The notes under the pieces: model-generated
What the model saw: only the letters and a program-made list of their open reading frames with translations
Told to the model about the DNA's origin: nothing
The model's database searches: none
Position numbers and translations under genes: made by a program
Shown here: piece by piece, positions 1 through 757 of the stretch
Layout of the letters: each line of letters begins with the position of its first letter
Numbering within the stretch: the first letter of the stretch is position 1
Origin: a phage
Sequence record: DQ372055.1
Reading direction: 5' to 3' (one strand)
DNA length: 757 nt

Positions 1-106
1 TGACGACGACATGGCTCGATTGGCGCGACAAGTTGCTGCGATTCTCACCAATAAAAAACGCCCGGCGGCAACCGAGCGTTCTGAACAAATCCAGATGGAG
101 TTCTGA
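1..106 (+). CDS. cII: cII transcriptional activator, C-terminal fragment (5' end outside window; codon phase starts at nt 2; stop TGA 104-106)
   Basis: Frame starting at nt 2 translates to [34 protein letters not shown], which matches the C-terminus of phage lambda CII as I recall it. Not in the ORF track because it is truncated by the window edge. Identity is recalled, not computed. Confidence 0.88.
52..78 (-). terminator. Rho-independent terminator of the oop-type antisense RNA (minus strand)
   Basis: Read on the minus strand: 5'-CGCUCGG-UUGCCG-CCGGGCG-UUUUUUAU. A 7-bp GC-rich stem (six Watson-Crick pairs plus one G-U) formed by nt 72-78 and 59-65, loop 66-71, then a U6 tract (plus-strand A6 at 53-58). 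On the plus strand the run of A precedes the hairpin, so it terminates only leftward transcription. Position within the cII 3' end matches the lambda oop terminator. Confidence 0.6.
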
Positions 107-129
107 GGTCATTACTGGATCAATCCACA
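52..129 (-). ncRNA. oop: oop-like antisense RNA (about 78 nt), antisense to the cII 3' end and the cII-O spacer
   Basis: Terminator at 52-78 on the minus strand, and a candidate promoter on the minus strand that places the transcription start near nt 129. Length and position relative to the cII stop match lambda oop. The 5' end is inferred, not observed. Confidence 0.5.
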
Positions 130-135
130 GGAGTA

Positions 136-164
136 ATTATGCCAAAACAACTCAGTCCTGACCA
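136..164 (-). promoter_or_regulatory. Candidate po-like sigma70 promoter for oop (minus strand)
   Basis: Minus strand reads TGGTCA (plus 159-164; 4/6 to TTGACA), a 17-nt spacer, then CATAAT (plus 136-141; 5/6 to TATAAT). Predicted start is about 7 nt downstream, near plus nt 129. The -10 overlaps the ATG of the small ORF on the opposite strand. Confidence 0.4.
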
Positions 165-285
165 GGACAAATTACACAAAAACATACTACGTGATCGGTT
201 CTTATCCAGCTTCAAACAGCCTGGTCGATTTCGGGCTGAGTTGGAGAAAGTGAAGCTAATACTGAAGAGGAAAGGTCATGAGTAA
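139..285 (+). CDS. Hypothetical small basic protein, 48 aa: [48 protein letters not shown]
   Basis: ATG at 139-141 is preceded by AGGAG (129-133) with a 5-nt spacer. This is the same initiation context that lambda uses for O, about 32 nt after the cII stop. Open for 48 codons to TAA 283-285; the other two + frames are closed across this stretch (stops at 134-136, 159-161, 251-253, 257-259). Composition is 8 K + 5 R against 3 D + 3 E. The stop overlaps the O start codon. No homologue recognised. Caveat: a 48-codon open frame arises by chance about 10% of the time. Confidence 0.45.
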
Positions 286-757
286 TCTTGCAACAGTTAC
301 ACCGATAAAACCTCATCTGGAGGTTGTGGAGCATCGCGTGGCAGAACTCGACGATGGCTACACCCGGACTGCAAATACACTGCTGGAAGCTGTCATGCTT
401 TCTGGGCTTACTCAACATCAGCTACTGATTGTTATGGCTGTGTGGCGCAAGACATACGGTTATAACAAAAAAATAGATTGGATCGGAAATGAACAGTTCG
501 CTGAACTCACTGGCATGGCGCCAACCAAATGTTCTACCGCCAAAAACGAGCTTATCAGAATGGGGGTTCTCACTCAGGTGGGGCGTCAGGTTGGTATGAA
601 TAAAAATATTTCCGAGTGGAAGACGAAGGTTAACGGATTCGGTAAAACATTTACCAGATCGGTAAAACTAACCTTCACCAAATCGGTAAAAACCAATTTA
701 CCGAATCAGTCAAACACAAAAGACAATATACAAAAGACAATAAATACAAATACCCCC
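278..757 (+). CDS. O: Replication initiation protein O (lambda O family), N-terminal iteron-binding domain; 3' end outside window
   Basis: ATG 278-280 is preceded by GAGG (267-270) with a 7-nt spacer. It is the first ATG after in-frame stops at 251-253 and 257-259, and the frame stays open to the window end (160 codons). Translation [65 protein letters not shown]...NELIRMGVL...GMNKNISEW...TKDNIQKT aligns with lambda O from residue 1 as recalled (MTNTAKI..., DLDDGYARLSNMLLEA, LRKTYGWNKP, NEAKLELVRM, GPNKNISEW, TKDTITKE). Iterons lie inside the gene, as in lambda. Confidence 0.88.
637..706. repeat. Origin iteron array: three dyad-symmetric O-binding sites built on TCGGTAAA / TTTACC half-sites
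   Basis: Forward half-site (A)TCGGTAAA at 639-646, 659-666 and 683-690. Inverted half-site TTTACC at 650-655 and 697-702, and a degenerate TTCACC at 674-679. The outermost 10-mers, ATTCGGTAAA (637-646) and TTTACCGAAT (697-706), are perfect reverse complements. Forward half-sites are spaced 20 and 24 bp apart. Position inside the O N-terminal-domain coding sequence mirrors lambda ori. A possible degenerate fourth site, GGTTAACGG, lies at 628-636. Confidence 0.7.
716..742 (+). repeat. Perfect 13-bp direct repeat ACAAAAGACAATA (716-728 and 730-742) in the A-rich tract right of the iterons
   Basis: Identical 13-mers one nucleotide apart (period 14). They sit in a strongly A-rich, strand-asymmetric tract (707-757) in the same place as the A/T-rich unwinding region next to the lambda iterons, which as I recall has the related motif ACACAAAAGACAC...ACAAAAGAAAAAAG. 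Confidence 0.6.

Follow-up and report, generated by a model that had tools for sequence, protein, structure and literature searches.

A repeat array in a lambda/P22 mosaic very probably represents part of the phage P22 origin in gene 18 and reads as four constant 17-bp dyads

Introduction

The replication origin of Salmonella phage P22 reportedly lies within gene 18, where Backhaus and Petri are said to have placed it in 1984 (Gene 32:289). Gene 18 carries four repeats of ~20 bp that are distinct from those of lambda (PMC8022706), and the orf48-18-12 module of P22 replaces lambda O-P in a viable hybrid, a swap that did not map the start site (PMC3349717). A lambda/P22 hybrid with repP22 is also insensitive to an inhibition that depends on the ori-lambda iterons (PMC3349717).

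In lambda, dimers of the O protein bind the iterons, an O-some is formed, and an AT-rich tract is needed for unwinding (PMC7466680). The lambda origin consists of four 18-19-bp iterons (ATCCCTCAAAACGAGGGA) and the AT-rich tract, all inside gene O, and the annotated O-binding sites start at positions 39034, 39054, 39078 and 39101 of J02459, a spacing of 20/24/23. The origins of theta plasmids of the Rep_3 group (pSC101 RepA, R6K pi, F RepE) also combine clustered repeats with a winged-helix initiator and an adjacent AT-rich unwinding element. Plasmid iterons, however, are asymmetric direct repeats that are bound by monomers and located outside the rep gene, whereas the repeats of the P22 type are dyads inside the reading frame of the initiator.

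Here, we analysed a 757-nt stretch of phage DNA (DQ372055.1), referred to as the window, in which an initial annotation had flagged positions 637-706 as a set of three inverted-repeat sites. The flagged interval was compared with P22, with lambda and with the origins of other initiators of the O family.

Results

Composition of the window

Base-by-base comparison gave 100% identity between window 1-121 and lambda 38548-38668 (cII/oop). Megablast against phage genomes gave 100% identity between window 114-757 and orf48 plus gene 18 of phage P22, with matches that include M10074.1, the P22 sequence of 1984, and BK000583.1, the curated P22 record; AF217253 is a further record of the P22 ori. Since bases 1-121 match lambda and bases 114-757 match P22, the window is a mosaic of lambda cII and the P22 replication region, and the alignments place the crossover within bases 114-121, which lambda and P22 have in common. 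P22 differs from the window upstream only, where bases 1-113 are lambda cII/oop and P22 has c1, and nothing differs within the origin. The arrangement resembles that of the laboratory hybrid lambda cI857(18,12)P22 (PMC3349717). The description of that hybrid gives fewer lambda differences in this region than were observed here (lambda positions 38669, 38673, 38682 and 38689). No record of the exact lambda-cII/P22-orf48 junction was found in the phage and E. coli collections searched.

The features of the window are collected in Table 1. The end of orf48 overlaps the start of gene 18 by 8 nt, and orf48 is found beside several O types (P22, Sf101 and an Erwinia phage). Because orf48 sits in the replication module, its RefSeq label 'tail protein' looks like an annotation error. 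The minus strand of window 55-164 carries signals of the oop antisense RNA: positions 164-136 resemble a promoter (TGGTCA-17-CATAAT) and positions 82-55 hold a terminator hairpin, in agreement with the BK000583.1 annotation of both oop elements. The 5' end of P22 oop (PMC13397905) corresponds to about window position 125. In the mosaic, P22 would supply the oop promoter and lambda the body of the RNA.

Table 1. Features of the window and of the sequence that closes the annotated origin
Feature	Positions	Strand	Details
cII 3' end	2-106		Pfam Phage_CII
orf48, 48 codons	139-285		Pfam DUF2740, E=2e-28
P22 gene 18, 5' part (truncated at the window end; codes for aa 1-160 of 271)	278-757	+	100% identity; Pfam Phage_rep_O, E=2.7e-38
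Phage_rep_O domain (PF04492) coding region, aa 20-114	335-619	+	Pfam match
Iteron 1, TTAACGGATTCGGTAAA, left (outer) arm degenerate	630-646		start is the start of the BK000583.1 rep_origin
Iteron 2, TTTACCAGATCGGTAAA	650-666		centre 20 nt past iteron 1 centre
Iteron 3, TTCACCAAATCGGTAAA	674-690		centre 24 nt past iteron 2 centre
Iteron 4, TTTACCGAATCAGTCAA, right (outer) arm degenerate	697-713		centre 23 nt past iteron 3 centre
A/T-rich region, directly after iteron 4	about 714-752		corresponding P22 positions: GC 0.20, AT skew 0.69
G/C-rich inverted repeat CCCCCTT...AAGGGGG, closes the annotated origin	about 753-774 (window holds 753-757 only)		P22 downstream sequence

Four iterons of constant length

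In the array, a 17-bp imperfect palindrome (consensus TTTACCGAWTCGGTAAA) is repeated four times in direct orientation (Table 1), and each copy has exactly 2 mismatches to the perfect palindrome. The iteron centres are located at 638, 658, 682 and 705. A repeat finder returned four direct copies of ~20 nt at 629, 649, 673 and 696, with spacings of 20, 24 and 23, and an independent, scripted and unsupervised repeat search returned copies at 630, 650, 674 and 697 with the consensus TTTACCGAATCGGTAAAAC. When at most 3 mismatches were allowed, the 17-mer TTTACCNNATCGGTAAA was found at 4 sites in the window versus 0.01 expected, a number reached in 0 of 200 shuffles. In the whole 41.7-kb genome of P22 the palindromic consensus, again with at most 3 mismatches, matches these four sites only (0.06 expected; 0 of 100 shuffles).

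The letters on which the initial annotation was built are correct. The half-site TCGGTAAA is exact at 639, 659 and 683, with TTTACC (650), TTCACC (674) and TTTACC (697) downstream of these copies across gaps of 3, 7 and 6 nt; the outer 10-mers ATTCGGTAAA (637-646) and TTTACCGAAT (697-706) are perfect reverse complements, and a check of the reading frame confirmed that the same nucleotides encode the 25-residue peptide that had been given. The division into three inverted-repeat sites did not survive, since both repeat finders resolve four iterons instead, and the flagged interval omits the degenerate outermost arms, those of iterons 1 and 4. The spacer that had been considered unusually variable is likewise an artefact of register: subtraction of 17 from 20/24/23 leaves 3/7/6 nt, which are the gaps between the iterons, and the oddity therefore vanishes. 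The lambda sites are also spaced 20/24/23.

The outermost units deviate in a regular way. GTCAA in place of GTAAA (C at +6) is a variant of the last iteron in all six loci of the P22 type that were examined (the window, L008 and L020-L023), and in the first iteron of P22-type arrays the left arm is always degenerate (TTAACGGA) and encodes a conserved N-G-F. These deviations are conserved imperfections and not random decay. No report of gp18 footprinting or EMSA on these repeats was found in the accessible literature.

Right part of the origin

The rep_origin of BK000583.1 (32840-32984, 'similar to phage lambda') corresponds to window 630-774, its left end being 7 nt upstream of the flagged interval and its right end 17 nt beyond the window. 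This GenBank annotation of the P22 origin rests on similarity to lambda, and in the same record the note on gene 18 assigns origin recognition through similarity to the phage lambda O protein. The A/T-rich region (714-752) is presumed to be the unwinding element. Inside it a repeat finder detected a tandem 14-nt repeat at 716-743 (ACAAAAGACAATAT / ACAAAAGACAATAA), and ACAAAAGACAAT repeats in tandem. Measured from the last iteron's centre, ACAAAAGAC starts at a distance of 11 nt to the right in 19 loci, namely the window, lambda and 17 others.

The sequence that closes the annotated origin was read from locus L001, in which positions 3140-3161 (window 753-774) hold the inverted repeats CCCCCTT-N8-AAGGGGG / CCCCCT-AA-AGGGGG. 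The arms of this G/C-rich repeat look like the arms of lambda-type iterons, more closely spaced, and the AT-rich tracts of Pectobacterium, Xenorhabdus ehlersii and lambda are likewise followed by G/C palindromes of a comparable kind.

The initiator gp18

An AlphaFold model of gp18 was built from 43 aligned homologues. Two parts of it are confident, namely aa ~31-118, where helices 33-41, 46-62, 71-78 and 82-94 precede a beta hairpin, and aa 180-271. The Phage_rep_O domain is predicted to be a winged-helix DNA-binding domain and is presumed to be the reader of the iterons, with helix 82-94 as the probable recognition helix. The top matches of the model in a Foldseek search of the PDB were winged-helix regulators (CAP, FixK, IclR and MarR); the assignment of the fold is tentative because these matches are weak (E=0.02-0.2, best 0.024). 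When gp18 was compared with PDB entries by sequence, no meaningful match and hence no homologue of solved structure emerged; the best hits were S1P receptors with an E of about 0.5.

Residues 120-171 of gp18 have a pLDDT below 50, and the segment encoded by the iterons (pLDDT 35-38) is predicted to be disordered. The array had been placed inside the coding region of an O N-terminal domain. That it lies inside a gene of the O family is correct, but it follows the Phage_rep_O domain and falls within the low-confidence residues, so that in the model it occupies a predicted inter-domain linker (aa 120-171).

Comparison across origins of the O family

A total of 27 O-family loci were compared: 15 phage loci chosen from across the N-domain tblastn ranking, 10 loci from bacterial genomes, lambda and the window. 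Three arrays were treated by eye. In Pectobacterium the automatic repeat finder chose AT-rich repeats and in X. ehlersii it chose the wrong register, and both were re-centred; the centre of the first SEN34 iteron was also set in this way. A dyad array with units of 16-19 bp is present directly behind the Phage_rep_O domain in all 27 loci. The last three spacings are 20/24/23 in 17 of the 27, with at least 8 different half-site sequences among the loci.

Half-sites were read outward from the dyad. The half-site of the window, TCGGTAAA, is shared by P22, Trabulsiella, Pectobacterium, Serratia, two Xenorhabdus and a Providencia phage. SEN34 and X. ehlersii have TCTGCTAA, Klebsiella GZ7, E. coli 4A7 and Arsenophonus have TCAGGTAA, and ST104, HK446 and Erwinia dacicola have TTGGCTAAT, while TTAGCTAAT was found in Kluyvera and TTGGTGACA in Sf101. 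The lambda half-site TTGAGGGAT recurs in g341c, VT1-Sakai and Leclercia, a TTGGTAACA-like half-site in Erwinia phages and a Citrobacter phage, and GGGAA / GGGAT types in a Mannheimia phage, HK225 and Gifsy-1. A shift of the P22-type half-sites by 1 bp towards the dyad relative to the GZ7/4A7 type (GGTAAA at 3-8 versus 4-9) was considered and dropped, as the difference could equally be due to two substitutions.

The half-site follows the DNA-binding domain of the initiator. At N-domain identities to the window of 68.8% or more, all six loci carry exactly the half-site of the window, and at identities of 62.4% or less all 20 loci deviate from it at no fewer than 2 of its 8 positions. Over the 27 loci, N-domain distance and half-site distance are correlated (Mantel Spearman r=0.565, p=0.0005), a p-value to be read as descriptive because the loci are related by descent. 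The check proposed with the initial annotation, a search for the half-site in other lambdoid replication modules and its comparison with the N-terminal type of O, has thereby been carried out and gave this correlation. Residues 84-88 of gp18, at the start of the predicted recognition helix, change with iteron type (KCSTA, HCSTA, KCSAA, HVCAA, RCNEA, KVNKA and KANIA). As judged from these sequences, the origin specificity of lambdoid replication modules can probably be predicted from the N-terminal domain of the initiator.

One may speculate further that a fixed O-some scaffold, made of the 20/24/23 phasing, the 11-nt ACAAAAGAC offset, the degenerate outer arms and the variant last iteron, is combined with a swappable and possibly readable recognition code at residues 84-88. 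We regard this generalization as unlikely to hold, and part or all of it may already be contained in the older lambdoid literature.

Discussion

The flagged stretch is best explained as the left and central part of the phage P22 ori inside gene 18, the homologue of lambda O, a reading to which we assign a probability of about 0.93. The similarity to lambda is evident at the level of architecture: in both phages the array lies directly after the Phage_rep_O domain, is made of four palindromic iterons and has a G/C-rich inverted repeat to its right. The window also displays the features of a lambdoid O-type origin in general, namely a site behind the Phage_rep_O domain, at least 4 dyad repeats of 17-19 bp, lambda-like phasing and an AT-rich tract. 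Differences from lambda are found in the recognition elements. The unit of the window is 17 bp and that of lambda 19 bp, its half-site TCGGTAAA differs from lambda TTGAGGGAT at 5 of 8 positions, the rep-lambda arms TCCCTC / GAGGGA are absent from its iterons, and its N-domain is about 44-48% identical to that of lambda. The helicase partner also differs, since P22 has the DnaB-type gp12 and lambda has the P loader instead. The proposal that these are non-lambda iterons of a distinct replicon type is thus well founded, as the half-site also co-varies with the N-domain and the repP22 hybrid escapes the ori-lambda-directed inhibition (PMC3349717). The element appears, by its sequence, to belong with ori-lambda in the way it works while representing another specificity type.

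Other lambdoid origins repeat this pattern. The types of HK97/ST104 (ATTAGCCAAGTCGGCTAAT), SEN34 (TTAGC-N7-GCTAA), GZ7/4A7 (TTACCCGAATCAGGTAA) and Sf101 (TGTCACCAAAACGGTGACA) have an architecture like that of the window and differ in the arms, and the phi80-like HK225 and Gifsy-1 are also similarly built but have periods of 21-22 nt. Most of these other types share the spacing of the window, and the copy number ranges from 4 to 7 or more.

The register of the array deserves attention, because the same letters can be read as three sites of the form TCGGTAAA-N(3,7,6)-TTYACC, in which the arms point apart and a flexible dimer tolerates the variable spacing. A plain palindrome score has peaks not only at the iteron centres but also at the gap mid-points 648 and 670, and a single-strand fold pairs exactly these neighbouring arms. 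The palindrome score cannot separate the two registers, however, because a dyad array is symmetric about its gaps too, and the register was decided instead by the constancy of the unit, the relatives, the information content and the homology to lambda. Each of these points to the four iterons. A unit length of 17 bp holds for the window and all relatives, whereas the gaps change; a Trabulsiella guamensis prophage with a 92% identical N-domain has seven copies with a 24-nt period, five of them the perfect TTTACCGAATCGGTAAA (L020, 1019-1180), and since its gaps are 7/7/7/7 against 3/7/6 here, the distance from arm to arm is fixed while the gaps vary. Among 27 pooled P22-type iterons from six loci, positions -8, -7, -4, +2, +4, +5, +7 and +8 are invariant, and the information content, high from -8 to +8 around the centre, falls to 0.25-0.7 bits at the majority of positions in the flanking gaps. 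The unsupervised search selected 630/650/674/697, and the homologous units of lambda, which are annotated O-binding iterons, have the same centre spacing. Three sites would also leave the arms at 630-637 and 706-713 unexplained, and we consider this parse very improbable.

Two further readings deny the repeats a role as protein sites in duplex DNA, and both seem very improbable as well. The repeats could be the by-product of selection for a repetitive peptide, TFTxSVK, and indeed iterons 2 and 3 share a frame and encode TFTRSVK and TFTKSVK. The four centres, though, are at offsets 360, 380, 404 and 427 from the start codon of gene 18, that is in frames 0, 2, 2 and 1, and iterons 1 and 4 encode NGFGK and NLPNQS and yet retain the DNA motif. 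Because the centres fall in different frames, the repeat must be kept at the level of DNA. Protein-level selection offers no rationale for dyad symmetry either, the segment concerned is predicted to be disordered, and among homologues the peptide changes wholesale with iteron type while the geometry of the array is fixed. Alternatively, the palindromes could act as hairpins of RNA or single-stranded DNA, for instance in the control of gene 18 translation or mRNA stability, and the fold of window 622-722 is strong (-29.1 kcal/mol, z=-6.6 versus shuffles). Any palindrome array folds strongly, automatically, and no Rfam family matched, the sole hit under a permissive threshold being MIR774 at chance level (20.9 bits versus a gathering score of 80). 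There is one arm sequence per genome, and it tracks the DNA-binding domain of the initiator, neither of which is needed by a constraint on structure only, and in lambda the corresponding iterons are known to be bound as duplex DNA (PMC7466680).

The suggestion of a dual constraint on these nucleotides is therefore to be modified. The DNA sites do overlap the coding sequence and the iterons encode gp18 aa 118-146, but the constraint is lopsided, with the DNA sites dictating the sequence of a tolerant linker. Across the 43 aligned homologues, the sequence of the linker varies with the iteron type (TFTxSVK, TLAKPAK or LPESGK), and the residues encoded from the AT-rich motif (T147, K148, D149 and N150) are invariant or nearly so.

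From the analogy with lambda we infer how the P22 origin could function, including gp18 binding, dimer stoichiometry, unwinding and helicase loading. A gp18 dimer would bind each iteron through the N-terminal winged-helix domain, with one TCGGTAAA half-site for each subunit. Four bound dimers may then assemble into an O-some-like complex, which would strain the neighbouring A/T-rich DNA and lead to its opening, and the C-terminal domain of gp18 could subsequently recruit the DnaB-type helicase gp12.

The element is already known, as the origin of a model phage that was sequenced in 1984 and is annotated in GenBank. The iteron set flagged as non-lambda is identical to P22, whose rep_origin is annotated at exactly this spot. 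The present analysis therefore carries little weight as a discovery, and its value is in the corrected reading of the array as four constant 17-bp dyads in an inter-domain linker. The prediction of origin specificity from the N-domain helps in the typing of prophage replication modules.

Two minor observations concern the evolution of these initiator genes. The extra iterons of longer arrays always add a multiple of 3 nt, since the reading frame of the initiator must be kept: 3x24=72 nt in Trabulsiella (L020), 20+19=39 nt in the Stx phage VT1-Sakai (L014) and 29+19=48 nt in GZ7/4A7. The first ~20 residues of gp18 (window 278-340), which are predicted to be disordered (pLDDT below 50), are near-identical in initiators with a different iteron type, such as that of Erwinia dacicola with HK97-type iterons, and this suggests a mosaic joint inside gene 18, upstream of the DNA-binding domain.
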